NCBI RefSeq assembly: GCF_035084215.1
Contig: NC_090339.1
Span: forward strand, 11,470,001-11,534,000
DNA length: 64,000 nucleotides
Source of the DNA: Heptranchias perlo
Taxonomy: Eukaryota
Reading direction: 5' to 3'
Shown: piece by piece, positions 1,563-55,924 of the stretch
How positions within the stretch are numbered: position 1 is the stretch's first letter
How the letters are laid out: the number at the start of each line of letters is the position of its first letter
Position numbers and translations under genes: made by a program
Notes under the pieces: generated by a model
Told to the model about the DNA's origin: nothing
The model's input: the letters and a program-made list of their open reading frames with translations, nothing else
The model's database searches: none

Positions 1563-2875
1563 CATAGAATCTCACAGCACAGAAGGAGGTCATTCAGTCC
1601 ATTGTGCCTGTGCTGACATAAGAACATAAGAAATAGGAGCAGGAGTAGGCTATCCCGGCCCCTCGAGCCTACTCTACCATTCACAAGATCATGACTGATC
1701 TTCTACCTCAACGCATTTTCCTGCACTATTCCCATATCCCTTAATGCCTTTAATATCTAGAAATCCATCGATCTCTGTTTTGAATGTACTCAATGACTGA
1801 GCCTCCACAGCCCTCTGGGGTAGAGAATTCCAAAGATTCACCACCCTCTGAGTGAAGAAATTTCTCCTCATCTCAGTCCTAAATGGCCTACCCCTTATTC
1901 TGAGACAGTGACCCCTGGATCTAGACTTCCCCAGGGGAAACATCCTCCCTGAATCTACCTTGTCAAGCCCTGTAGGAATTTTGTTTGTTTCAATGAGATC
2001 ACCTCTCATTTTTCTAAACTCTAGGGAATACAGGCCTCGTCTACTCAATCTCTCCTCATATGACAATCCCACCATCCCAGGAATCAGTCTGGTGAACCTT
2101 TGTTGCACTCCCTCTATGGCAAGTATATCCCTTCTTAAGTAAGGAGACCAAAATTGTACATAATACTCCAGACGTGGTCTCACCAAGGCCCTGTATAATT
2201 GCAGTAAGAAGCTTTTACTCCTGTACTCAAATCCTCTTGTAATAAAGATCAACATACCATTTGCCTTCCTAATTGCTTGCTGCACCTGCATGTTAGCTTT
2301 CAATGAATCATGTACAAGAACACCCAGGTCCCTTTGAACATCAACATTTCCCAATCTCTCACCATTTAAAAAATACTCTGCATTTCTGTTTTTCCTACCA
2401 AAGTGGATAACTTCACATTTTTCCACATTATATTCCATCTGCCATGTTCTTTCCCATTCACTTAGCCTGTCTATATCCCCTTGAAGCCTCTTTGCATCCT
2501 CCTCACAACTCACATTCCCACCTGGTTTTGTGTCATCAGCAAACTTGGAAATATTACATTTGGTCCCCTCATCCAAATCATTGATACAGATTGTGAATAG
2601 CTGGGGCCCAAGCACCGATCCCTGCGATACCCCACTGGTCACAGTCTGCCAACCTGAAAAAGACCCATTTATTCCTACTCTCTGTTTTCTGTCCATTAAC
2701 CAATTCTCAATCCATGCCAGTATATTACCCCCAGTTCCATGTGCTCTAACTTTGTTCACCAACAAAGCACTCCCCCTCTCTTTCCCTATAGCCCTGCAAA
2801 TTTTTCATTTTCAAGTATATATCCAATTCCCTTTTGAAAGTTACTATTGAATCTGCTTCCATCGCCTTTTCAGGC
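1563..2875 (-). mobile_element. Older CR1 LINE 3' remnant split into 1563-1615 and 2761-2875 by a younger CR1
   Basis: CATAGAATCTCACAGCACAGAAGGAGG tail on the left continues as CCCTATAGCCCTGCAAATTTTTC...GAATCTGCTTCC after the insert; reverse complement of the 3' end of the 4145-6383 element. Confidence 0.75.
1617..2760 (-). mobile_element. 5'-truncated CR1-clade (HER1-like) LINE
   Basis: ORF 1689-2765 has RT motifs [10 protein letters not shown] and KFADDTK, plus LVRPRLEY and RRNFFTQRVVNLWNSLP; (CATAAGAA)n tail at 1617-1633. Confidence 0.95.
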
Positions 2876-7973: not shown

Positions 7974-9949
7974 CCATGGCCTGTATATCTACTGTTGGGC
8001 CTCCACTGCCCTACCGATTCACTGCCATCCTCTGTTTGGCTTTGTGTGGTCTTGCACAAACCGCGGCTCTGTTACCAATGCTTATTTATTAACTTACAAG
8101 GTGAACGCACATTTTTCTGTACTTCCCCCATCACTGTACCGATCAACTGCAAATCATCCCAAATTAGCTCAACCATCTCTGCAGCAGAGACATTGGCCCC
8201 AATTTTAACGGGGAGGGAGGTGGGAAGGGTGTGGGGGAACGCGGTAGCACGGGAAAAACCCGGCAGCGCCATGGATGTGGAGGCCCTGCTGATCTTAACA
8301 GCAGGGCCTCATTTAAATAACCTGCTGCAGACACCAGCCCAACAACCAGCCAGATTGAAAGCCTGGTCTGTGGGTGAGGGAGGCAGAAAAGTGGCAGGAG
8401 TTAGTGGTGGGGGTGGGGGAGAGGGAGGGAGGAGAGTGAGGGAGCGGGGAGCAAGAGGGAGGTGGAGAGGGAGGGGGATGAGGAGGGAGAGGGGGAGTGG
8501 AGGAGGGAGGGGGGAGTGGAGCAGGGGAGGGGGTATAGGGAGGCAGGGAGGCAGTGACAGCTCCCCCATCAGGTAAAACCTGCTGGAGCTAAATCCGAGG
8601 CCAAAAGTGGACCAGAAGGGGAGGGGAGGGGATAGCAAGGTTCAAGGGTGGTCCAAGATTTCCTTGTGAGGCCCAGAGGAGCACTCCTGCCCTTCCTGGC
8701 CCACAAGGAAACCTGAAAGATAAATTTTATACTTACTTTCTGGTCCACTTTTGGCCTAGGGTTTAGCTCCAGCAGGTTTTAACTGATGGGGGAGCTGGCA
8801 CTGCCTCCCTGCCTCCTTATACCCCTTCCCCCCCTCCATTCCACATTTCCCCCCTCCACTCCCCCTCTCCCTCCCTATCCCCCTCCCTCTCCTCCCTCCC
8901 TCTCCCCTGCTCCCTCTCCCCTTCCTCCCCCAGAGTACTAAAGGAAGTGGCCCTGGAAATAGTGGATGCATTGGTGATCATCTTCCAAAATTCTATAGAC
9001 TCTGGAACAGTTCCTGCAGATTGGAGGGTGGTAAATGTAACCCCACTATTTAAAAAAGGAGGGAGAGAAAAAACAGGGAATTATAGACCAGTTAGCCTAA
9101 CATCAGTAGTGGGGAAAATGCTCGAGTCTATTATAAAAGATGTGATAACAGAACACTTGGATGGCATTCATGGGATTGGACAAAGTCAGCATGGGTTTAT
9201 GAAAGGGAAATCATGCTGAACAAATCGACTGGAGCTTTTTGAGGATGTAACTAGTAGAATAGATAGGGGAGAACCAGTGGATGTGGTGGATTTGGATTTT
9301 CAGAAGGCTTTTGATAAGGTCCCACACAAGAGGTTAGTGTGCAAAATTAAAGCACATGGGACTGGGGGGAATATACTGGCATGGATTGAGAATTGGTTGA
9401 CAGACAGGAAACAGAGAGTAGGAATAAACGGGTCTTTTTCCGGGTGGCAGGCAGTGACTAGTGGGGTACCACAGGGATCAGTGCTTGGGGCCCAGCGATT
9501 CACAATATATATCAATGATTTGGATGAGGGAATGGAATGTAACATTTCCAAGTTTGCAGACGACACAAAGCTGGGGTGGAATGTGAGCTGTGAGAGGATA
9601 CAAAGAGGCTCCAATGTGATTTAGACAAGTTGGGTGAGTGGGTAAATGTGAGGTTATCCACTTTAGTTGTAAAAACAGAAAGACAGTTTGGGCCCGATAT
9701 TACCAGGACGGCGGGTTCGCGGCGGGGGGGCAACTGGGCGCGTGGGAAACATGCCCGGTGAAATCAGTCTGCCCCGAACGCAATCGCAGGCTGATTGGAT
9801 CCACTTACCTCTTGTTCCGGGTTCCCCGCTGCTGAGCTGTGCGGTGGGCGGGCTGCGCATGCGCAGTAAGGTCTGTCAGCTGGAGGAGCTCTATTTAAAG
9901 GGGCAGTCCTCCACTGACTGATGCTGCAAGAAATAGGAAAAATTACAGC

Positions 9950-10194
9950 ATGGAGCAGTCCTGGGGGAAGGCTGCTCCCAGTTTAATGATGCCTCACTCC
10001 AGGTATCATTGGATGGGGTGAGGAGGACGGGGAGGACAGAGATCGTCCCCCCGGCAGGCGGGAGGAAGCGGCCTGCCTCTGCCACCAGGAAGGCCTGGCT
10101 TGAGGTGGCAGAGGAGGTCACCTGCACCACCAACATATCGCCCACCTGCATACAGTGCAGGAGGCGCTGCAATGACCTCAGTAGGTCAGCCAAA
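9950..10194 (+). pseudogene. Harbinger Myb/SANT-like DNA-binding protein exon 1, frameshifted
   Basis: MEQ..KAAP/FNDASLQV..DGV...TRKAWLEVAEEV...QCRRRCNDLSRSAK followed by a GTGAGT donor; 1-nt deletion near 9980. Confidence 0.8.
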
Positions 10195-10720
10195 GTGAGT
10201 ACACTTACTCATTCTCCTATACTCTGTCTGCCACATCACCACCCCCACCCCACAACTCCTTCTGCACTGCCAACACTACTCTGTCACATCACTCCTCACA
10301 CCCACTCAAACCTCATCCTCATCTTACCTGCACTTACTCACCTCGCCAGTACTCATCCCGCCACTACCACTCAACCCAATCCTCATACAATCTCATGGCT
10401 CTATCTCATACTCACCCTCTCATGCATCTCTTTCATGGTCAGCCTCACTCAACCTGCCACTACCTGTGCTGCAGCCACAGGGCATGCATCACATATGTGC
10501 AGTAGGAAGCGTAAGGCAAACGTGTCGTGAGCATGAAGGGGATGCACAAGGGTGTTTGAGGGTTTGTCATGGTTTTTACTTATATTTAATTTCTGATCAA
10601 CTCACATTACATATATTGGCACCACTACTGCCATAACTTTGCGAATCTTGTCTGGTTTGTGCAATAATTCCCTTTCCTGAGGATCACAATGAAGACCCAC
10701 ACCTGATGCCACCCGTTGTG

Positions 10721-12471: not shown

Positions 12472-13855
12472 TCCACTCCCTCTCCCCCTCTCCCCATTCC
12501 CTCACTCTCCTCCCTCCCTCTCCCCCAATCCCTCTCCCTCGCTCCCTCTCCACCGCTCCCTCTACCCCACTCCCTCTCCCCCACTCTCCCTCCCTCTCTC
12601 TCCCTCTCCCCCTCTCCCTCCTCCTCCTCTCCCGTGCTCCCTTTCCCCTCCCTCATTCCCTCTCCCCTCCATCTCCCCCCTCCCTCTCCATCCCTCTCCC
12701 CCCCTCCCTCTTGCCCTCCCTCTCCCCCTCTCTCTCCCTCCTTCCCTCCCTCCCTTCCCCCTCTCCCTCACCCGCCCTCTCCCTCTACCTCCCTCCTCCC
12801 TCTCCCTCCCTCTCCGTCTACCCCTCCCTCTCTTTCCCTCACCCACCTTGTCCCTCTCCCCCTCCCTCTCCCTCCTTCCCTCCCTCCCTCTTCCCCTCTC
12901 CTTGCCCTCCCTCTCCCTCCCTCCCTCTCCCTCTCCACCCTCTCTCTCCATCCTTTCCTCCATCTCCCTCTCCCCCGCTCCATCTCTCCCTATCCCCCCT
13001 CTCCCCCCTATCCCCCTCTCCCCCTATCCCCCCTATCCCCCTCTCCCTCACTCCCTCTCCCCTCCCTCTCCCTCCCTCCTCCCTCCCTCTCCCCTCCTCC
13101 CTCCTCCTCCTCCCTCTCCCCCTTCATCACTCCCCCTCCCTTCCTTTCCCCCTCTCTCCCTCCTTCANNNNNNNNNNNNNNNNNNNNNNNNNNNNNNNNN
13201 NNNNNNNNNNNNNNNNNNNNNNNNNNNNNNNNNNNNNNNNNNNNNNNNNNNNNNNNNNNNNNNNNNNNNNNNNNNNNNNNNNNNNNNNNNNNNNNNNNNN
13301 NNNNNNNNNNNNNNNNNNNNNNNNNNNNNNNNNNNNNNNNNNNNNNNNNNNNNNNNNNNNNNNNNNNTTTCCCCTCTCTCCCTCCCCCCCTCTCTCCCCC
13401 TCTCCCTCCTCTCTCTCTCACCTTCCCTCCCTCTCCCTCTTTCCCTCTCTCCCACTCCCTCTCCCACTCTCTCCCTCCTTCCCTCCCTCTACCTCCTCTC
13501 CCTCGCTCTCCCCTCCTCCCCCTCTCTGCCCTCTCTCTCCTCACCCACCCCCCTCCCCCTGTCCCTTGCTCCCTCTCCCCTCCCTCACTCCCTCTCCCCT
13601 CCCTCACCCCCTCCCTCTCCATCCCTCTCCCCTCCTCCCTCTCACCCTCCTTCCCTCCTCCCCTTCCTCTCCTTCCCTCTCTCTTCCTCCCCCTCTCCTG
13701 CCTTTCCCCGCTCTCCCTCGCCCTCCCCCTCCTCCGACCTTCCCCGCTCTCCCTCGCCCTCCCTCTCCTCCTCCCTTCGCCGCTCCCCCTCGCCCTCCCT
13801 CTCCCTCCCTCTCCTCCGCCCTTCCCCGCTCTCCCTCGCCCTCCCTCTCCCCCGC
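12472..13855. repeat. Polypyrimidine/polypurine (C/T-rich) low-complexity tract
   Basis: Almost exclusively C and T on the plus strand; spans an assembly gap. Confidence 0.95.
13168..13367. other. Assembly gap (200 N)
   Basis: Run of N. Confidence 1.
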
Positions 13856-14739
13856 TCAGACCTCAGGTTGAAATTACAGATCGGGTCCTGACGATGTTAT
13901 CAGACTCAATCTGCAATATTTAAAATGGGACCCCTCCTCCTTCCTGCGGGTGCCCTGCTCACCCACTCAAAAGAGCAGGTTAATATCAGGACACAGCGAG
14001 AAGGAAGCAGGATTGGGCGGAGTAAGTGATTGCCCTCGCCCCCCCCCTCCCGGTTTCCGCCAGGTGGGTGCAGTTAAAATCGGGGCCATTGGGTGAGGTA
14101 AATGCTGGTACTGTGATTTTAAATCAAACATTTCATTACAAATTGAGATAAAACAAAACATTTTAATACTGAAAATAAGCTTCAAGATGTGTCAAGTTAA
14201 TGTAATGTGTGAACGAATCATATTGTTGGTGCAATACAATCAAAGGATTTTCTCAGCTTCCTTTTCCAAGTAAATCATTTGTATCAATGTTGCTGAATCC
14301 ATTCTATATTAATTATTAAATGTAAAACTTAAAACGCACATTGCTTTTGATGCTATAGATGGTAGCCCAGTGCGAAAGTTCTTAGTTTGATCTTGTTCGG
14401 GAATCTGTATGGTCCAAGAAATAACTTTATTAAAGGTTTAACAAACACATTGTACAGCACAGTTCAGCTTCTACTGACAGAATTCCATTTTCAGTGCTCT
14501 GGCTAGAGCAGTCTGCAAAAAACTGATCATCAAATTGAAACACTATCAGCTACTGATTGCTCAGGGAATGTCTCTAAATTACCTGCCGATGTCCCACCTG
14601 GATCCCGCTGTCTTCCACTTTATCCTGCTCTTCTGAGCAGGCAGTGAGGCTATCCACCTGAAGACAACGAGGTTCTACTTTAAATAATTGTAAACAATTT
14701 TACAACACCAAGTTATAGTCCAATAATTTTTATTTGAAA

Positions 14740-14778
14740 TCTACAAGCTTTCGGAGGCTTCCTCCTTCCTCAGGTAAA
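14740..14778 (-). ncRNA. Minimal type I hammerhead ribozyme (outer element)
   Basis: UUUAC CUGAGGA A GGAGG-AAG-CCUCC GAAA GC UU GUAGA. Confidence 0.78.
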
Positions 14779-14828
14779 TGTGAACAATTTTACAACACCA
14801 AGTTATAGTCCAGCAATTTTATTTTAAA

Positions 14829-14867
14829 TTCACAAGCTTTCGGAGGCTACCTCCTTCCTCAGGTGAA
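14829..14867 (-). ncRNA. Minimal type I hammerhead ribozyme (inner element, inverted arm)
   Basis: Exact reverse complement of 14873-14911. Confidence 0.8.
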
Positions 14868-14872
14868 CATCG

Positions 14873-14911
14873 TTCACCTGAGGAAGGAGGTAGCCTCCGA
14901 AAGCTTGTGAA
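14873..14911 (+). ncRNA. Minimal type I hammerhead ribozyme (inner element)
   Basis: UUCAC CUGAGGA A GGAGG-UAG-CCUCC GAAA GC UU GUGAA: core CUGANGA and GAAA, 5-bp stems I and II, palindromic AGCU stem III. Confidence 0.8.
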
Positions 14912-15506
14912 TTTAAAATAAAATTGCTGGACTATAACTTGGTGTTGTAAAATTGTTTACAATTGTCAACCCCAGTCCATCACCGGCATCGCCACATCAG
15001 GTAAATATGAGGAAGCCTCCGAAAGCTTGTAGATTTCAAATAAAAATTGTTCGACTATAACTTGGTGTTGTAAAATTGTTTACAATTGTCAACCCCAGTC
15101 CATCACCGGCATCTCCACATCATGACTACTTTAAATATGCAGATCATGTTCCGATGACATCATCAGGTCACGACTGCAATTTTAACTCAGACCTCAGCAG
15201 GGTTGGCGGGAAAAGGATCTGAGACCACAAGGGGCCAATGAAGGTGAGTAGTTTTACTTTCTTTTGGGAACCCTCCAGGGCCAACAATTAAAATTTAGGC
15301 CTCCTCTTGTCCTGTTTGTGGTTTATGAGTACCGTTTTATGACTATGACATAATGGGTACGGTTCTATGGATATGGTAATGTGTTGAGACATGAATGAGG
15401 GAAAGAGAAACAGTGAAGGCTGATAGGGTTGAACAGCCACCCAACTAAAGACAAGTAGAGACATATCCTTGCCTAGTAATTGACTTCCTATTGTACAGAT
15501 GCAATT

Positions 15507-17731
15507 TTTTTTTATTCATGGGACGTGGGCGTCGCTGGCAAGGCCAGCATTTATTGCCCATCCCTAATTGCCCTTGAGAAGGTGGTGGTGAGCCACCTTC
15601 TTGAACCGCTGCAGTCCACGTGGTGAAGGTTCTCCCACAGTGCTGTTAGGAAGGGAGTTCCAGGATTTTGACCCAGCGACGATGAAGGAACGGCGATATA
15701 TTTCCAAGTCAGGATGGTGTGTGACTTGGAGGGGAACGTGCAGGTGGTGTTGTTCTCATGCGCCTTCCAGGTGGTAGAGGTCGCGGGTTTGGGAGGTGCT
15801 GTTGAAGAAGCCTTGGCGAGTTGCTGCAGTGCATCCTGTGGATGGTACTCACTGCAGCCACTGTGCACCGATGGCGGAGGGAGTGAATGTTTAAGGTGGA
15901 GGATGAGGTGCCAATCAAGCGGGCTGCTTTGTCCTGGATAGTGTCAAGCTCCTTGAGCGTTGTTGGAGCTGCACTCATCCAGGCAAGTGGAGAGTATTCC
16001 ATCACACTCCTGACTTGGTCTTGTAGATGGTGGAAAGGCTTTGGGGAGTCAGGAGGTGAGGCGCTCACCACCGAATACCCAGCCTCTGACCTGCTCTTGT
16101 AGCCACAGTATTTATATGGCTGGTCCAGTTAAGTTTCTAGTCAATGGTGACCCCCAGGATGTTGATGGTGGGGGATTCGGCGATGGTAATGCCGTTGAAT
16201 GTCAAGGGGAGGTGGTTAGACTCTCTCTTGTTAGAGATGAACATTGCCTGGCACTTATCTGGCGCGAATGTTACTTGCCACTTATCAGCCCAAGCCTGGA
16301 TGTTGTGCACGTCTTGCCGCATGCGGGTTCGGACTGCTTCATTATCTGAGGGGTTGCGAATGCAACTGAACACTGTGCAATCATCAGTGAACATCCCCAT
16401 TTCTGACCTTCTGATGGAGGGAAGGTCATTGATGAAGCAGCTGAAGATGGTTGGGCCTAGAACACTGCCGTGAGCAACTCCTGCAGCAATGTCCTGGGGC
16501 TGAGATGATTGGCCTCCAACAACCACTACCATCTTTCTTTGTGCTAGGTATGACTCCAGCCACTGGAGAGTTTTCCCCCTGATTCCCATTGATTTCAATT
16601 TTACTAGGGCTCTTTGGTGCCACACTCGGTCAAATGCTGCCTTGATGTCAAGGGCAGTCACTCTCACCTCACCTCTGGAATTCAGCTCTTTTGTCCATGT
16701 TTGGACCAAGGTTGTAATGAGGTCTGGAGCCGAGTGGTTCTGGCGGAACCCAAACTGAGCTTATTGGTGAGTAAGTGCCGCTTGATAGCACTGTCGATGG
16801 CACCTTCCATCACTTTGCTGATGATTGAGAGTAGACTGATGGGGCGGTAATTGGCCAGATTGCATTTGTCCTGTTTTTGTGAACAGGACATTCCTGGGCA
16901 TTTTTCCACTTTGTCGGGTAGAGGCCAGTGTTGTAGATGTACTGGAACAGTTTGGCTAGAGGCCCATCTACTACTGGTGCACAAGACTTCAGCGCTACAG
17001 CCGGGATGTTGTAGGGGCCCATAGCCTTTGTTGTTTCCAGTGCACTCAGCCATTTCTTGATATCACATGGAGTGATTCGAATTGGCTGAAGACTGGTTTC
17101 TGTGATGGTGGGGATCTCGGGAGGAGGCCAAGATGGATCATCCACTCGGCACTTCTGGCTGAAGATGGTTGCAAACGCTTCAGCCTTGTCTTTTGCAATC
17201 ACGTGCTGGGCTCTGCCATCATTGAGAATGGGGATGTTTGCAGAGCCTCCTCCTCCCATTAGTTGTTTAATTGTCCACCACCATTCACGACTGGATGAGG
17301 CAGGACTGCAGAGCTTTGATCTGATCCGTTGGTTGTGGAATCACTTAGTTCTGTCTATAGCATGTTGCTTCCGCTGTTTAGCATGCATGTAGTCCTGTGT
17401 TGTAGCTTCACCAGTTGGGCACTTCATTTTTAGGTACGCCTGGTGCTGCTCCTGGCATGCTCTTCTACACTCCTCATTGAACCAGGGTTGATCCCATGGC
17501 TTGTTGATAATGGTAGAGTGAGGAATATGCCAGGCCATGAGGTTACAGATTGTGCTGGAATACAATTCTGCTGCTGCTGATGGCCCACAGTGCCTCATGG
17601 ATGCCCAGTTTTGAGCTGCTAGATCTGTTCTGAATCTATCCCATTTAGCACGGTGGTAGTGCCACACAACATGATGGACAGTGTCCTCAGTGTGAAGACA
17701 GGACTTTGTATCCCAAGGATTGTGTAGCGGT
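15507..17731 (-). mobile_element. 5'-truncated poly(A)-tailed non-LTR retrotransposon (CR1-superfamily, Zenon-like motifs) in the 5' LTR
   Basis: ALDIKAAFDRVWH, GSVLGPTIFSCFINDL, FTDDCT, VRSVMEYSPLAW; T-run at 15505-15513; AATT at both ends. Confidence 0.88.
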
Positions 17732-18353: not shown

Positions 18354-20800
18354 CTAAACGGTTGCCTTTCCCCACAGAGCCTTTGCGGCGGCCGCACCCA
18401 TCCTCAGTGCGTCCCTCAGCACGTAGTCCTGGACCTTGGAATGTGCCAGTCTGCAACACTCGGTCGAGGACAGCTCCTTGTGCTGGAAGACCAGCAAGTT
18501 TCGGGCAGACCAAAGGGCGTCTTTCACCGAGTTGATGGTCTTCCAGCAGCAGCTGATGTCCGTCTCAGTGTGCGTCCCCGGGAACAGCCCATAGAGCACA
18601 GAATCCTGTGTTATGGAACTGCTCGGGACGAACCTGGACAGATACCACTGCATCTCTCTCCAGACCTTCTTTGCAAAGGCGCATTCCAGAAGGAGATGGG
18701 CGACGGTCTCGACTGCACCGCAACCTCCTCTGGGACAGCGCGCGGTGGCGCTGAGAGTCCGGGAGTACATGAAGGATCTGACAGGAAGGGCCCTTCTCAC
18801 CACCAGCCAAGCTAGGTCTTGGTGCTTGTTTGAAAGTTCTGGTGATGAGGCGTTCTGCCAAATGACATCGACAGTCTGCTCGGGGAACCAACCGACAGGA
18901 TCCACCATCTCCTTTTCCCTCAGGGTCTCGAGGACGTTACGTGCGGACCACTTGCTGATCGCCTTGTGGTCAAAGGTGTTTTTCTGCATAAACTTTTCGA
19001 CGAAGGACAGGTGGGGCGGAACGGTCCAACTGGACGGAGCGTTCCGTGGCAGCGTGGCCAGGCCCATCCTTCTCAGCACCGGGGATAGGTAGAACCTCAG
19101 CACGTAGTGACACTTCGTGTTTGTGTACCGAGGGTCTATGCACAGCTTGATGCAGCCGCACACAAAGGTGGCCATCAGGATGAGGGCCACGTTGGGCACG
19201 CCTTTCCCCCCTTTCTCTGGAGATTTGTACATCATGTCCCTGCGGATACGGTCCATTTTTGATCTCCAGATAAAGCGGAAGATGGCTCGGGTGACTGTCA
19301 CGGCGCAGGAGCGAGGTATGGGCCAGACCTGCGCCACGTACAGCAACACCGAGAGCACCTCGCACCTGATGACCAGGTTTTTGCCCACGATCGAGAGGGA
19401 TCGTCGATCCCACAGTCCCAGTTTCTGCTTCACCTTGGAAATACGCTCCTTCCAGTTTTTGTTGCATGCCCCGGCCCCCCCGAACCAGATCCCCAGCACC
19501 TTCAGGTAATCCGACCTGACGGTGAAGGGGACAAAGGATCGGTCGGTCCAGTTCCCAAAGAGCATGGCCTCGCTCTTGCTACGATTTACCCTGGCCCCCG
19601 AGGCCAGTTCGAAACGGTCGCAGATGCTCATCAATCTGTGGACCGAGAGCTGATCCGAGCAAAAGACGGCGACGTCATCCATGTACAGGGAGGCCTTGAC
19701 CTGAGTGCCTCCGCTGCCTGGGATCGTCACCCCTCTTATGCCCGCATCCCTCGTGATGGACTCGGCAAAGGGTTCGATGCAGCACACGAGCAAGACGGAG
19801 GAGAGAGGGCAGCCCTGCCTGACTCCAGATTTGATCGGAAAGCTTTCTGATTCCCACCCATTGATTGAAACTGCGCGACTGATGTTTGTGTAGAGCAGTT
19901 GGATCCAATTGCGGATTCCCTCTCCAAACCCCATTTTGAAGAGTACGTCCATCTTGTACGTGTGGGATATTCTGTCAAAGGCCTTCTCCTGGTCCAGGCT
20001 GATCAGGCAGGTGTTCACCCCCTGTCCTGTACGTAGGCGATCGTATCCCTGAGTAGCACCAGGCTATCAGAGATCTTCCTGCCGGGTATGGTGCAGGTCT
20101 GATGGGGGTGGATCACCACCTCCAGGGCTGACTTGACCCGATTGGCGATGACCTTGGACAGAATTTTGTAGTCCACGTTAAGTAGTGAGATGGGTCGCCA
20201 ATTTTTGATTTCTTCCCTCTCCCCCTTCCGCTTGTAGATGAGGGTGATGATGCCTTTCCTCATGGAGTCTGACATGCTGCCTGCCAGGAGCATACTCCCG
20301 TACACTTCCAGCAGGTCTGGGCCTATCCAGTCCCACAGAGCCGAGTACAACTCCACCGGTAAGCCGTCGCTTCCGGGAGTCTTACTCTTCTCAAACGAAC
20401 GGACGGCCTTTGTCAGTTCGTCCAGAGTTAGCGGGTGATCCAGACTCTCCTGCTTGCTGTCGTCTAGAACCTCCGTGATAGACGACAAGAAGGACTGGGA
20501 GGCCGCGCTGTCTGTGGGCTTCGCGTCGTACAGTCCGGCATAGAAGGATTTGCAGATCCTCACTATGTCAGGCTGCGAGGACGTGACCGAGCCGTCCTCT
20601 TCCTTCAGGCTGCTGATCACAGAGCTCTCTCTGTGCACCTTTTGGAAGAAGAAACGCGAGCAAGACTCGTCCTGCTCCACGAAGCGGAAAATGATCTTGG
20701 AGGCCTCGGAGACAAAAAGCGAGGCTTGTTGGTCCTTCACCTCTCTGGGTTCCTCCCCGACATCGATCCCCATTGACTGCAGCAGGAGCAGATTCTGCAT
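18354..20800 (-). pseudogene. Tx1 ORF2 reverse transcriptase plus C-terminal zinc knuckle, one frameshift near 20015
   Basis: NWRPISLLNVDYKILSK, LDQEKAFDRISH, GVRQGCPLS, LYMDDV, CPRGGCGAVETVAHLLLEC. Confidence 0.95.
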
Positions 20801-25027: not shown

Positions 25028-25659
25028 TGTTGAGGGAGAGAAAAACCGTGAAGACTGATATGGTTGAACAGCCACCCAACTAAAGACAAGTCAAGAAATG
25101 TCCTTGCCTAGCAATTTACTTCCTATTGTACAGATGCAAATTGGGTATTACTCAAAGTCTGGGAAAAATATACATAAGATAATTAGTTTTGAACTTGCTA
25201 CTTGATGAACGACATACGGAGACAGTCAGCCTAGGAAACAAAGGTCAGTCAAATACAGGTGAGTCACACGTCACTCTAAACAGGACACAGTAATCTGTGC
25301 AAGGTCAAGTTTGACGGGAGAAAACTCACATGTAATTGAGGTGAACAAAGACAGAGCAATCTTTGTGTGGGAAATGGCTGTTCCAAAGCCAGTTGGTTTT
25401 AAGTGGTGTTTGAGAGGCAGACAAAGATATCCAGTCTATGTGTATTAGGTGAGTTTCGCTGAGCATGTACAAGGTATGAGCAAAGGTAGGATAAAGGGAC
25501 CACACTTTGGCTGTTAGGGGGTACTGTCTGAAGAGCTCGTGCCTAGGCTTGACTGTATCCTGCTTATTGCACTGTAACATTGAAATAAAGACAAGTCAAG
25601 AAACAAGGACCGAATCTGCCTGTCATTTTACCCGACGGATTTAACTTCATTTAACTTCA
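25028..25659 (+). repeat. Uninterrupted 3' LTR (about 630 bp)
   Basis: Collinear with the three joined 5' LTR pieces; TGTTGAG...TTAACTTCA. Confidence 0.9.
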
Positions 25660-31093: not shown

Positions 31094-31814
31094 AGGAAGA
31101 GGATATTTCCCATAATAGGGGGTAAGCTGCTAGTTAGTCGAGTTTGCAATGGGTCACGAGCAATCGTAGTCTCGGGAGCTTTGCTTGATCACCTTAGGGA
31201 GTCAGGGAGGAATTCGCCAGAGTTTTTCCTGAATTGTCCGCAGATCTTCTTTCCATCTCTTTTTTTTTGCCTCTCTCAGGAAATAATTCTGCGAGGATGG
31301 ACAGAGTGTAGGGTTGCACCATTGACTGGTTGGGGCATGGCTATTTGAGCCTGATGGGGATTTTCATTCTCTTCACTTCTTCTCATATGTTCGGAAAAAG
31401 GTGGGTTTAAAGCAAATAAGTCGACGGAAAATCAGAATTTCTCACCCATCGGCTTGTGATATAAATTTGTCAGCGGTGAAATGACCATGCCAACCTTCAA
31501 TTGGGACCCACAGTGTGTAAAGTTATGAGCCCAGGTGGTTAATTTGTAAAATTGATGCTCTACCTGTAGTTTTACTTGAAGCTCGTTACTTTTGACTTCT
31601 TCGTTCAATTGAGATTGTCCATATTTGTTTAGGGTTCCTAAATTCAGAATCTGCATTCTCATTCTAAAGTAAGAATGTGCAACACACTGCTCCAGAAAGC
31701 CATCAATGCCAATGCTGTTGGAATGCTTAGAAGGGTGACAGACACTTACTTGGTAAGTAAGAGCATGCCGGTTTAGTGTTGGGGGGTGGTGACACTGAGA
31801 TCCGGTGCTCCCAG

Positions 31815-33730
31815 CGGGGAGCGGTACTCACAGGGGGGAGTGGTACTCACAGTGGGGAGTGGTACTCACGGGGGGGAGTGGTACGCATGGGAGGAGTGGT
31901 ACTCACAGTGGGGAGTGGTACTCACAGGGGGGAGTGGTATGCATGGGAGGAGTGGTACTCACAAGAGGGAGCGGTACTCACAGTGGGGAGTGGTACTCAC
32001 GGGGGGATGGTACTCACGGGGGGGGTGGTACTCACAGGGGGGATGGTACTCACAAGAGGGAGTGGTTCTCACAGGGGGGAGTGGTACTCAGTGGGGAGTG
32101 GTACTCACGGGGGGATGGTACTCACAATGGGGAGTGGTACTCACGAGAGTGACTGGTACACACAGGGGGAGCGGTACTCACAGGGGGGGTGGTACTCACA
32201 GGGGGGACGGTACTCACAATGGGGAGTGGTTCTCACGGGGGGAGCGGTACTCACGAGAGAGAGTGGTACTCACGAGAGGGAGTGGTACTCACGAGAGGGA
32301 GCGGTACTCACAGGGGGGAGCGGTACTCACAGGGGGGAGTGGTACTCACAGTGGGTAGTGGTGCTCACGGGAGGGAGAGGTACGCACAATGGGAGGGGTA
32401 CTGACAGGGGGGAGTGGTACTCACGGAGGGAGCGGTACTCATGGTGGGGAATGGTATTAACGGAGGGAGCGGTACTCACAGGGGGGAGCGGTACTCACGG
32501 AGGGAGCGGTACTCATGGTGGGGAATGGTACTCATAGGGGGAAGTGGTACTCACAGGGGTGAGTGGTACGCATGGGAGGGAGCGGTACTCACAGTGGGGA
32601 ATGGTACTCATGGTGGGGAATGGTACTCACAGGGGGGAGCGGTACTCATGGTGGGGAATGGTACTCACAGTGGGGAGCAGTACTCACGGTGGGGAATGGT
32701 ACTCACAGTGGGGAGCGGTACTCACGGTGGGGAATGGTACTCACGGTGGGGAATGGTACTTATGGTGGGGAATGGTACTTATGGTGGGGAATGGTACTCA
32801 CGGTGGGGAATGGTACTTATGGTGGGGAATGGTACTCACGGTGGGGAATGGTACTCACAGTGGGGAATGGTACTCACGGTGGGGAATGGTACTTATGGTG
32901 GGGAATGGTACTCACGGTGGGGAATGGTACTTATGGTGGGGAATGGTACTCACGGTGGGGAATGGTACTTATGGTGGGGAATGGTACTTATGGTGGGGAG
33001 CGGTACTTATGGTGGGGAATGGTACTCACGGTGGGGAATGGTACTTATGGTGGGGAATGGTACTCACAGTGGGGAATGGTACTCACGGTGGGGAATGGTA
33101 CTTATGGTGGGGAATGGTACTCACGGTGGGGAATGGTACTTATGGTGGGGAGTGGTACTCACGGTGGGGAGCGGTACTCACAGTGGGGAGTGGTACTTAT
33201 GGTGGGGAGCGGTACTCACGGTGGGGAATGGTACTTATGGTGGGGAGCGGTACTCACGGTGGGGAATGGTACTTATGGTGGGGAGTGGTACTCACGGTGG
33301 GGAATGGTACTTATGGTGGGGAGTGGTACTCACGGTGGGGAACGGTACTCACAGTGGGGAGTGGTACTGATGGTGGGGAATGGTACTTATGGTGGGGAAT
33401 GGTACTCACAGTGGGGAATGGTACTGATGGTGGGGAATGGTACTTATGGTGGGGAATGGTACTCACAGTGGGGAATGGTACTGATGGTGGGGAATGGTAC
33501 TTATGGTGGGGAATGGTACTCACATTGGGGAATGGTACTTATGGTGGGGAGCGGTACTCACGGTGGGGAGCGGTACTCACGGAGGGAGCGGTACTCACGG
33601 TGGGGAATGGTACTCAGAGTGGGGAGTGGTACTCACGGAGGGAGCGGTACTCACGGTGGGGAGCGGTACTCACGGAGGGAGCGGTACTCACGGTGGGGAG
33701 TGGTACTCACATTGGGGAGTGGTACTGACA
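31815..33730. repeat. G-rich 19-bp minisatellite (GGTACTCACGGTGGGGAAT and variants), about 100 units
   Basis: Direct inspection; more variable units on the left, homogeneous in the centre. Confidence 0.95.
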
Positions 33731-33734
33731 GCAG

Positions 33735-33954
<220 letters not shown>

Positions 33955-50314: not shown

Positions 50315-51410
50315 GTCGTCTGCGCTAAAGAGCCCTGCAAATACACCTACACCCACTCTGCAGTGACACAATGGGTTGAATTAGTTGTGGGTCTTCATAG
50401 TGATCCTCAGGAGAGGGCATTATTGCACAAACCAGACAGGATTCGCGAAGACATGGCAGTAGTGGTGCCAATATAATATGTAATGTGCGTTGGTCAGAAA
50501 TTCAATGTAAGTAACACCCATGACAAACCCTCAAACATCCTTGTGCATCCCCTTCATGCTCACAACACGTTTGCCTTACGCTGCCTACTGCACATATGTG
50601 ATGCATGCCCTGTGGCTGCAGCACAGGTAGTGGCAGGTTGAATGAGGCTGGCCGTGAAAGAGATGCATGAGAGGGTGAGTATGAGATAGAGCCATGAGAT
50701 TGTATGAGGATTGGGTTGAGTGGTAGTGGCAGGATGAGTACTGGCGAGGTGAGTAGGTGCAGGTAAGATGAGGATGAGGTTTGAGTGGGTATGAGGGGTG
50801 ATGTGACAGAGTAGTGTTGGCAGTGCTGAAGGAGATGTGGGGTGGGGGCAGTGATGTGGCAGACGGAGTGTAGGGGAAAGACTACGTGTGCTCACTTTGG
50901 CTGACCTACTGAAGTCATTGGAGCGCCTCCTGCACTGTATGCAGGTGGGCGATATGTTGGTTGTGCTGGTAACCTCCTCTGCCACCTCGAGCCAGGCCTT
51001 CCTGGTGGCAGAGGCAGGCCGCTTCCTCCCGCCCGCCGGGAGGAAGATCTCTGTCCTCCCCCTCCTCCTCACCCCATGTATTGATACCTGGAGTGAGGCA
51101 TCATTAAACTGGGAGCAGCCTTCCTCCTGGGCTGCTCCATGCTGTAATTTTTGCTATTTGTTGCAGCATCTGTCAGTGGAGGACTGCCCCTTTAAATAGA
51201 GCTCCTCCAGCTGACAGATCTTACTGCGCATGCGCAGTCCACCCGACGCGCAGATCAGCAGTGGGGAACCCGGAGGAGCAGGTAAGTGGATCCAATTAGT
51301 GGATTGTCTGCTACGATTGCATGGGAAGCAGACTAATTTCACCGGGCACGTTACCCATGCGCCCGATAGCCCCCCCGCCGAGAACCCGCAGCCCTGCTAA
51401 CATCGGGCCC
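50315..51410 (-). mobile_element. Second, truncated copy of the 9690-11711 Harbinger
   Basis: Reverse complement of about 9690-10772; ends ATCGGGCCC; ORF 50560-51072 mirrors 10009-10530. Confidence 0.92.
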
Positions 51411-54814: not shown

Positions 54815-55735
54815 TTAAAATCGTCGGGCAAGCTCATCAGTTTGCTGGTTTGATATCTGCAAGTTAGGAGTACAGATGTCAGATGAATTGGTTGCACAGG
54901 CAACACTGAGAAGGCAGTTTAGAACAATGTCCTTAGCTTTTGTGGGCTCCATGTTTTTCTCATGAGAAATCTGCAGGCTAATTTGATCAATGTTGGTCAT
55001 CAGGAAGTGGGAGCCCAGTATTTTTGTTGGCGATGCACACTTTGTCATGCTGTCCTCGAGATACTGCTTATACAGTTCTGTAATCTTTTTCTCCATGTAG
55101 TTGTTGAGCACAGAATTGGATAACGGCTCTCTCTGAAGGGGGATGCTTTTGTCGCTGAAAATGAAAGTATCTGCTCTTGAATGTTGCAGGACTTCACACC
55201 GAGAGCCAGGTAGCGGCGGCCACACAGGTTGGTCCTCCATCTGAAGGATGGGCCAATTGCAGCTTTCGGAATCATCATCCATAAAACAGCAGCTGCTTGC
55301 AGGACTATTGGGTGTAACATTATCTCCGGCAATCTGTAAATCTGTGTAACTCTGGCAAGTGGTGGACCAAGATCTGTACCAGTCCAAATCGCTTTCACTG
55401 TGTACAGAGTTCTTTGGTATGTCTAAAATGTCAGAGGTCTTTCTTTCAAACATGGGTGCCCTGGTATTCACACCAGTTGCTTCCTCTTCACCTTGCACCT
55501 GGAGTGATTCTCCCTTCTCTTGAATGATGCTACCTAAAGTGCCTTGAATGTTTTCTTCTGCATTGTGCTGCTCGTGTTCAATGCCTTCTGTGAATTCAGA
55601 TGAACTGAAGAGCTCTTCCCAGGAGTTGGTGCTGGTCTTAGGTGTCTTCCTGGAGTTCACACAGTTATGGTTGTGGGTGCACTCCCTTTGGTGGTGGTTG
55701 TAACGAATCCCAGTGAGGAAGCCTTCGGCTAACAT
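54815..55735 (-). CDS. TASL: TASL/CXorf21-family TLR adaptor interacting with SLC15A4 (306 aa); TASL versus TASL2 paralogue unresolved
   Basis: MLAEGFLTG (human MLSEGYLSG); YTDLQIAGDNV (YNDLQIAGGQV); PLSNSVLNNYMEKKITELYKQY; SPTKILGSHFLMTNIDQISLQISHEKNMEPTKAKDIV; pLxIS motif CTPNLQIS; splice acceptor 8 nt before the ATG. Confidence 0.95.
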   Translation of the reverse strand: MLAEGFLTGIRYNHHQRECTHNHNCVNSRKTPKTSTNSWEELFSSSEFTEGIEHEQHNAEENIQGTLGSIIQEKGESLQVQGEEEATGVNTRAPMFERKTSDILDIPKNSVHSESDLDWYRSWSTTCQSYTDLQIAGDNVTPNSPASSCCFMDDDSESCNWPILQMEDQPVWPPLPGSRCEVLQHSRADTFIFSDKSIPLQREPLSNSVLNNYMEKKITELYKQYLEDSMTKCASPTKILGSHFLMTNIDQISLQISHEKNMEPTKAKDIVLNCLLSVACATNSSDICTPNLQISNQQTDELARRF

Positions 55736-55924
55736 GACGGATGCTATTGAGACACAAAGCAGTTTAATGTCAATGGTAAATGGGGTGCAAAAATCTACTA
55801 CATGTCGCAACTTATATCTGTCAGACTTTTTATCTTCTTGGGTGGCACCGAGGGTAATTAAACTTGGTGACAGCATTCCAGGGGTAGGGAGTAAAAAAAA
55901 TCACACACATGATAAAAAATGACC

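Follow-up and report, generated by a model that had tools for sequence, protein, structure and literature searches.

Nested Penelope-like insertions with inverted pLTR arms and hammerhead ribozymes in a shark genome: possible products of twin priming

Introduction

Penelope-like elements (PLEs) leave insertions of unusual architecture. In an insert described from Adineta, the direct pLTR exceeds its inverted counterpart by 37 bp, a tail of 31 bp is present and the TSDs measure 8-10 bp; the same study reports that palindromes are common at the inverted pLTR junction, proposes self-priming as their source, and records a copy of Pen2a inserted within Pen3 (PMC3846280). A tail of 30-40 bp at one end only has been put forward as a general PLE rule (PMC8557442), Penelope of D. 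virilis has a repeat of 34-37 bp (PMC2377424), and the tail is likewise defined in work on the PLE of the anole (PMC11167929). Minimal hammerheads are located in the pLTRs, where opposite-strand pairs 100-700 bp apart have been attributed to truncated PLEs (PMC4209133). Most PLE insertions are 5'-truncated (PMC11167929, PMC8557442, bioRxiv 10.64898/2026.07.22.740005), PLEs tend to land within or next to copies already present (PMC6765202), and inverted pLTRs and 3' extensions appear in a curation guide as recognised peculiarities of the group (PMC8969392). The origin of the inverted arms and of the one-sided tail is still called undefined (PMC8557442).

Biochemical work on the anole PLE bears on this question. 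In vitro, its protein both cuts and extends the two strands of AT-rich DNA, its own pLTR included. Reverse transcription begins internally, at a pair of sites that delimit the tail, behaves alike on the two strands and requires no ribozyme cleavage; the dominant site is found 85-92 nt beyond the point of ribozyme cleavage (111-118 minus 26) (PMC11167929).

Here we analyse a stretch of 64,000 nt (hereafter the window) from the shark Heptranchias perlo, in which an earlier note had described a self-nesting, ORF-less, palindromic Penelope mini-element with three hammerhead ribozymes. Inverted pLTRs, tails, hammerheads and self-insertion have all been described for PLEs already, and the object itself is in that sense ordinary. 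No description of this shark family was found in the literature searched, though the family may well be catalogued in Repbase or Dfam.

Results

Two nested insertions with asymmetric arms

The 86-bp perfect inverted repeat holds at the positions first given for it: the reverse complement of 14872-14957 reproduces 14783-14868 at every position (86/86), with ATC as spacer, and the arms reach 93 nt (14776-14868 / 14872-14964) when two mismatches are allowed. The two 12-bp TSDs were also recovered. The inner pair, 14771-14782 and 14998-15009, agrees at 11 of 12 positions in a target of 67% A+T, and the outer pair, 14675-14686 and 15126-15137, at all 12 in a target of 83% A+T. As a control, 5000 random end pairs compared over 13x13 offsets gave at least 11/12 in 23 cases and 12/12 in seven. 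The nesting stands, one TSD-bounded element lying inside another, and so does the absence of an ORF: the longest stop-free frame within 14687-15125 has 45 codons, and no ORF was found in any of the three insertions of the family within the window.

The features are as follows, with arm positions numbered from A6 of CUGA as +1.

14675-14686, no strand: left TSD of the outer (older) insertion, 12/12 against 15126-15137
14686-14781, minus: outer inverted pLTR arm, about -11 to +84, tail-less, by alignment to the inner direct arm
14739-14779, minus: predicted hammerhead H3, minimal type I, core CUGAGGA from 14773, predicted cut after 14745; stem I of 6 bp, stem II of 4-5 bp, palindromic AGCU
14765-14781, no strand: apex of the outer inverted repeat, 17 nt unpaired, target site of the inner insertion
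14771-14782, no strand: left TSD of the inner (younger) insertion, 11/12 against 14998-15009, holding the 5' half of H3
14776-14871, minus: inner inverted pLTR arm, -12 to +84, tail-less, including the spacer 14869-14871; its final 7 nt overlap the TSD
14828-14868, minus: predicted hammerhead H2, equal to H1 in sequence, predicted cut after 14834
14872-14964, plus: inner direct pLTR arm, -9 to +84
14872-14912, plus: predicted hammerhead H1, core from 14878, predicted cut after U 14906
14965-14999, plus: inner tail, 35 nt, AC-rich, +85 to +119, its final 2 nt common with the TSD
14998-15009, no strand: right TSD of the inner insertion, 11/12 against 14771-14782
15009-15087, plus: outer direct pLTR arm, 5'-truncated at +7, without the CUGA core and so without a ribozyme
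15088-15125, plus: outer tail, 38 nt, stopping just beyond the ATG at 15122-15124
15126-15137, no strand: right TSD of the outer insertion, 12/12 against 14675-14686
48766-48801, minus: third insertion, direct arm consisting of the tail alone, +85 to about +120 (blastn 33/35 against the inner tail)
48799-48883, plus: third insertion, inverted arm, -1 to +84, core cut off (blastn and common-frame alignment)
48799-48801: third insertion, 3-nt microhomology at the arm-tail junction
48763-48767 / 48881-48885: third insertion, weak candidate TSD of 5 bp overlapping the element ends

The term palindromic fits the inverted repeat but neither element as a whole, for both are asymmetric: the inverted arm is tail-less, and the AC-rich tail (14965-14999 in one element, 15088-15125 in the other) is carried by the right, direct arm alone. 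In addition, the outer right arm has lost the CUGA core, and the spacer at 14869-14871 can be matched to the bases upstream in the outer arm only if it is read in the orientation of the inverted arm. The outer arms pair over 14686-14764 / 15009-15087, which by subtraction leaves the 17-nt unpaired apex at 14765-14781, and it is within this apex of the 212-bp outer element that the target of the inner element lies. The ATG that follows the outer tail may be the start codon of the parent element. Comparison with the rest of the window returned no empty target site or related flank for the left side, and for the right side only an unrelated repeat (15396-15500 / 25031-25135). We conclude that the nested pair probably arose in two steps, each a heavily 5'-truncated insertion, with the younger element landing inside the older.

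A third insertion shares the outer ends and differs at the junction

Searches of the window with blastn and nhmmer identified a third insertion of the family at 48766-48883, some 34 kb away, in which the palindrome is absent; nhmmer returned the six known arms together with four further matches at E 3-8, which we treated as noise. Comparison of the three insertions separates what is fixed from what is free. The outer end of the inverted arm falls at +84 in every case, and local alignment of the direct arm extends to +119 in every case, with true ends between +117 and +122 given the overlap with the TSDs. The tail, of 35, 38 and about 36 nt, is confined to the direct arm throughout. The central junction, by contrast, differs in all three, at -12/-9 in the inner copy, about -11/+7 in the outer and -1/+85 in the third, with arms that overlap by 93, 78 and 0 nt, respectively. 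In the third copy the arms adjoin exactly at the +84/+85 tail boundary, as non-overlapping pieces of one RNA.

With outer ends fixed and junctions variable in three of three insertions, the palindrome cannot be regarded as a conserved mobile unit, at least at this sample size (n=3). A conserved family of palindromic mini-elements, as the earlier note had suggested, is thus not supported by the three insertions of the window: one of the three copies has no palindrome, and variable breakpoints, which that note had itself named as evidence against its reading, occur at the central junction of each. Three long arms end at -9 to -12, and their 5' limit is thus conserved in part. Between ribozyme and tail, none of the three sense frames is open.

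The arms also carry a record of descent. Over about 70 shared nucleotides, the two arms differ at no position in the inner element and at two in the outer, while 7-10 differences separate one element from another, so that the elements derive from separate events with different templates. The inner copy is less diverged than the outer and is therefore the younger, as the nesting demands.

Three predicted hammerheads buried in an inverted repeat

A descriptor for minimal type I hammerheads, applied to both strands of the 64-kb window, gave three matches (+14878, -14862 and -14773), whereas 200 block-shuffled windows averaged 0.0, in agreement with the three cores noticed at the outset. The spacing of 89 nt between the minus-strand cores and the predicted cut at U17 14906 were reproduced as well, U17 of the other two falling at 14834 and 14745. 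A search with hammerhead models, which the earlier note had suggested, gave no Rfam hammerhead either over the whole window (0/8 matches, E<=1) or over 14660-14880 (0/3 matches, E<=10), and the ribozyme call therefore rests on the descriptor together with the published definition of minimal hammerheads. By that definition the features of a minimal dimer-type ribozyme are all present: the conserved core, stems I and II, the palindromic 15.1-16.1 and U16.1-H17.

Compared with the hammerheads of metazoan PLEs, the predicted shark ribozymes share the CUGANGA core, the extra base before stem II, the G10.1-C11.1 pair and a palindromic AGCU in place of stem III, and are distinguished by a short stem II (4-5 bp) and by G or C at N7 (PMC4209133). 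H1 and H2 are identical; H3 differs from them at 5 of 41 positions, four in stem I and one in loop II, all of them compatible with the fold, and all 10 pairs are retained in both variants. The covariation comprises one two-sided and two one-sided changes, and with only two distinct sequences to compare, 258 of 500 shuffles reach the same value. The preservation of the fold suggests selection in the parent lineages, a suggestion that two sequences leave without statistical support.

Folding of 491-nt read-through transcripts gave -294 kcal/mol for the plus strand and -311 kcal/mol for the minus strand, the inner hairpin folded at -152 kcal/mol, and the pair probability of stem II rounded to 0.000000 for each of the three ribozymes. 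Owing to the head-to-head layout, every ribozyme is preceded by its own complement on either strand and is thus predicted to be sequestered in a read-through transcript. Of the two fates considered in the earlier note, the folds favour sequestration of the ribozymes in a long hairpin. According to these models, read-through of the locus would probably produce such a hairpin rather than active ribozymes, which would be intact yet passive. If the locus is transcribed, an output of small RNAs is plausible by analogy with those reported from PLEs (PMC3846280).

Discussion

Identity of the insertions

The nested pair and the third copy are very probably insertions of an endonuclease-type (EN+) PLE, the Penelope origin that had been proposed. 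The assignment rests on four features of EN+ PLE anatomy: a hammerhead in the pLTR, a one-sided tail of 30-40 bp, a head-to-head inverted arm and a TSD. A head-to-head inverted 5' arm with variable 5' truncation is found in all three insertions, and a TSD in an AT-rich target is clear in two of them (12 bp), the third having the weak 5-bp candidate. A PLE ORF or parent element adjoining these pLTRs was sought in the window and not found, and the lack of an ORF in all three insertions accords with the view that they were mobilised by a protein encoded elsewhere.

The closest described structures are Pen2/Pen2a of Adineta vaga and Penelope of D. virilis, with which the shark insertions share head-to-head pLTRs, an inverted arm shorter by about 35 nt, a one-sided tail, a long TSD, an AT-rich target, a palindromic junction and secondary insertion of Penelope into Penelope; they differ in the shark host, in having no ORF between the TSDs, in including one copy with non-overlapping arms, and in the length of the TSD, 12 bp where the rotifer examples have 8-10 bp (PMC3846280, PMC2377424, PMC8557442). 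Poseidon of Anolis carolinensis (PAc) offers a further parallel, by description rather than by sequence, in its two fixed 3' ends that bound an AC-rich tail, in a tail that ends about 90 nt beyond the point of ribozyme cleavage and in cleavage of its own pLTR (PMC11167929). The ORF of PAc starts in stem II, whereas the shark frames remain closed until the ATG just after the tail, and the PAc paper does not deal with inverted arms (PMC11167929).

Twin priming at two sites on one RNA

We regard the insertions as likely by-products of ordinary PLE insertion in which the ribozymes are passive, and within that account we lean, with only modest confidence, towards twin priming as their specific origin. 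According to this model, the RT-GIY-YIG protein of the PLE would introduce nicks into AT-rich DNA, one per strand and 12 nt apart. From the nicked bottom strand, cDNA synthesis would be primed at the distal start site on the RNA, where the tail ends; the nicked top strand would prime at the proximal one (+84), both sites probably lying on a single RNA. Both cDNAs would then extend towards the RNA 5' end, halt within about 35-130 nt and be joined head-to-head, via microhomology where it is present. Where the first cDNA was blocked at +85 a clean inversion would result, as in the third copy; where it ran beyond +85 the arms would overlap and form a palindrome, as in the inner and outer copies. 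The second event would have struck the AT-rich apex of the older copy, matching the known tendency of PLEs towards self-insertion.

Such a scheme would explain why the outer ends are fixed and the junctions free, why the tail is one-sided, why diagnostic bases are shared and why the third copy is a clean inversion. The 5' inversions that L1 produces by twin priming are comparable: like the shark inserts, they have an inverted 5' segment and microhomology at the junction and are flanked by a TSD. The second priming site in the shark family is fixed (+84) rather than scattered as in L1, and the arms can overlap. Twin priming was not found to have been proposed for PLEs in the literature searched. 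Priming on both strands, as described for PAc, would explain the shark structure (PMC11167929). The shark tail ends 91-96 nt past U17 and the tail-less arms 58 nt past it, and the anole positions 111-118 with which these might be compared are not assigned to the proximal or the distal site in the text of that paper (PMC11167929).

The template itself can be read in two ways. The limit at -9 to -12 and the closed frames would fit an RNA whose 5' end lies just upstream of stem I and whose ORF begins at the ATG at 15122. A short dedicated RNA would equally give that 5' limit, and the closed frames, while they fit an ORF that starts after the tail, fit a non-coding template equally well.

Alternative templates and alternative priming

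The first alternative to an ordinary element RNA is accordingly a dedicated short, non-autonomous pLTR RNA of about -12 to +120, SINE- or retrozyme-like, mobilised in trans by the same insertion chemistry; the unit would then be the single arm and not the palindrome. The lack of an ORF in all three insertions, the arms ending at -9 to -12 and the closed sense frames are what it predicts, and it has precedents in MRC1, a non-autonomous PLE derivative of Chlamydomonas (PMC8557442), in pLTR-related retrozymes that include one from a chondrichthyan (bioRxiv 10.64898/2026.07.22.740005) and in pLTR-mediated mobilisation in trans (PMC3846280). Internal priming on ordinary PLE RNA, at about 120 nt from the ribozyme, however, predicts the same short, ORF-less products and makes a special mini-element unnecessary, the more so as most PLE insertions are 5'-truncated in any case (sources cited above). 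Neither a tandem array nor a separate promoter was seen, none of the inserts extends into the upstream sequence, and no master copy is visible in the window. We consider a dedicated template unlikely.

A second alternative, to which we give a similarly low probability, is fold-back self-priming, in which one cDNA or antisense template copies itself into a perfect palindrome; the outer and third insertions would have been trimmed later at the apex. Palindrome apices are prone to deletion, and the asymmetric junctions may represent later damage of this kind. The inner copy suits this reading well, with arms identical at 86/86 around a 3-nt loop and with the youngest copy the most symmetric, and self-priming is the published interpretation of PLE junction palindromes (PMC3846280). 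Three observations are difficult to accommodate. The inverted arm carries sequence absent from the direct arm in two of the three insertions; the break in the third copy lies exactly at the +84/+85 tail boundary, where a random later deletion would rarely fall; and the inner spacer belongs to the tail-less arm, copying of which could not supply the tail. Self-priming thus fits the inner copy but demands later apex deletions in the other two.

It is far less likely that the locus is active, with its two minus-strand hammerheads dimerising in cis, as had been suggested, to release an 89-nt RNA that might circularise in the manner of retrozymes. Both cores are intact and 89 nt apart, a double-hammerhead topology can be drawn in which one cross stem I forms 6/6 pairs, and all five differences of H3 from H1/H2 preserve the fold, subject to the shuffle result given above for two distinct sequences. 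Nevertheless, read-through on either strand places a full complement 5' of each ribozyme, so that cis dimerisation would need a transcript starting at the hairpin apex; stem I between the H2 core and the H3 site has a C.A mismatch at its third pair; and the 89-nt piece would be without a tail. In published work such ribozymes show little activity or depend on protein: minimal metazoan hammerheads cleave poorly even as dimers (PMC4209133), one of nine frog dimers cleaved (bioRxiv 10.64898/2026.07.22.740005) and the anole PLE ribozyme required protein (PMC11167929). We also calculated a gap of 16 kcal/mol between the cis dimer and the ensemble, the dimer being the less stable, and set it aside as non-discriminating, the isolated trans dimer having the same gap (-19.3 vs -35.8).

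An assembly artefact, from a fold-back read or a collapsed repeat, is very improbable. The inner arms are 100% identical, which polishing may have brought about, and the window contains two N-gaps, both in low-complexity DNA; against this stand two independent TSDs, unique flanks, element-specific diagnostic bases, an asymmetric tail, a separate, independent insertion at a distance of 34 kb that shares the outer ends, and the presence of the window's TASL-like protein on a 66.8-Mb contig. A MITE, fold-back DNA transposon or microRNA precursor is scarcely credible despite the long inverted repeat and an Rfam match to MIR821 (E 4.5e-19), as that match scores 108 bits against a gathering score of 249 and reflects a generic long hairpin, while the termini are not mutually inverted (the tail is one-sided), the junctions vary, and hammerhead and tail are PLE features.

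Relation to retrozymes and wider implications

The nested pair resembles non-LTR retrozymes (PMC7229834; bioRxiv 10.64898/2026.07.22.740005) in being non-coding, low in GC, related to pLTRs and equipped with a type I hammerhead; on its minus strand, moreover, two hammerhead units now stand head-to-tail as a result of the nesting. Two consecutive minus-strand units with complete cores formally fit the two-unit rule for retrozymes (bioRxiv 10.64898/2026.07.22.740005). Retrozymes, however, are tandem repeats of one unit, mostly of 150-450 bp, with canonical hammerheads (PMC7229834; bioRxiv 10.64898/2026.07.22.740005), whereas the shark pair at 89 nt joins by chance two different subfamilies, with 7 differences in 71 nt, that were brought together by nesting and lie buried in an inverted repeat.

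More speculatively, and as a proposal that we hold to be doubtful in its entirety, twin priming at two fixed RNA sites might be combined with homing of the endonuclease to the extruded apices of its own inverted inserts, so that the inserts would be footprints of both, and self-insertion, when repeated, would stack hammerhead units head-to-tail and could seed non-LTR retrozyme arrays. The basis for apex homing is that the inner target falls in the 17-nt apex of a 212-bp element, that family DNA other than the inner copy makes up 0.5% of the window, and that a two-unit tandem has resulted. Were twin priming correct, the inverted pLTRs and the one-sided tail of PLEs would be explained in a single step. 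With short, recent, TSD-bounded inserts at a density of three in 64 kb, this shark family is a test case for twin priming versus self-priming, and it would also allow a test of whether self-insertion builds the tandem hammerhead arrays of retrozymes. For genome annotation there is a practical warning, in that such inserts resemble MITEs or microRNA hairpins.

Two further scans were discarded. A 20-nt family motif gave 2 matches in GTDB against 2.2 expected by chance, none extending beyond 27 nt, and these we attribute to chance; a sigma-70 promoter scan gave seven sites, four of which are the same motif in four arms, and is meaningless in a eukaryote. Elsewhere in the window, three of four other frames scanned are reverse-transcriptase fragments, which from their appearance we take to be LINE-type, and a 361-codon frame at 54818-55900 (minus) encodes the TASL-like protein (Pfam PF15133, E 4.6e-74), whose best named relatives are from sharks, at 80-81% identity, followed by other sharks and rays.

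Junctions of the Penelope-like insertions

The two copies of the target-site duplication that bounds the inner, younger insertion of the nested element differ at a single position; at that base the left copy, whose stretch 14776-14782 overlaps the inverted arm, agrees with the antisense end of the element. This pattern resembles what a target end annealing to the RNA at +84 would leave behind, +84 being the position (counted from A6 of the hammerhead core) at which the inverted arm ends. The window holds a further insertion of the same family, which has no palindrome:

48766-48883: third insertion, with its tail on the minus and its inverted arm on the plus strand

Here the arms divide exactly where the tail begins, with 3 nt of microhomology at the join. 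The tail of the outer insertion stops just beyond an ATG (15122-15124), the first on the sense strand downstream of the ribozyme and possibly the start codon of the parent element.

An identical 12-mer flanks the nested element on either side (13855-13866 and 15186-15197, 1331 bp apart), reflecting either chance or a remnant of the host repeat. A dispersed 105-bp repeat (copies at 15396-15500 and 25031-25135, 90% identical) is unrelated to the pLTR.

Other features of the window

54818-55900, minus strand: TASL-like gene in a single frame (Pfam PF15133)
1692-2804, minus strand: reverse-transcriptase fragment (Pfam RVT_1)
16140-16760, minus strand: reverse-transcriptase fragment (Pfam RVT_1)
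18357-20063, minus strand: reverse-transcriptase fragment (Pfam RVT_1 and zf-RVT)
9937-10530, plus strand: 197-codon stop-to-stop frame of a dispersed repeat
50560-51153, minus strand: similar 197-codon stop-to-stop frame of that repeat
13168-13367: N-gap of 200 bases
46202-46452: N-gap of 251 bases

The TASL-like protein is 80-81% identical to named shark proteins. The three listed reverse-transcriptase fragments look like relics of LINE type; additional fragments of the same sort are present. The 197-codon frames presumably resemble Myb/SANT-like transposon ORFs, and a Pfam scan of the plus-strand frame returned no match. Long open frames at 31761-33741 and 40023-45431 are spurious, because these regions consist of degenerate long tandem repeats with strong strand skew. 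Both N-gaps in the window are surrounded by low-complexity DNA.
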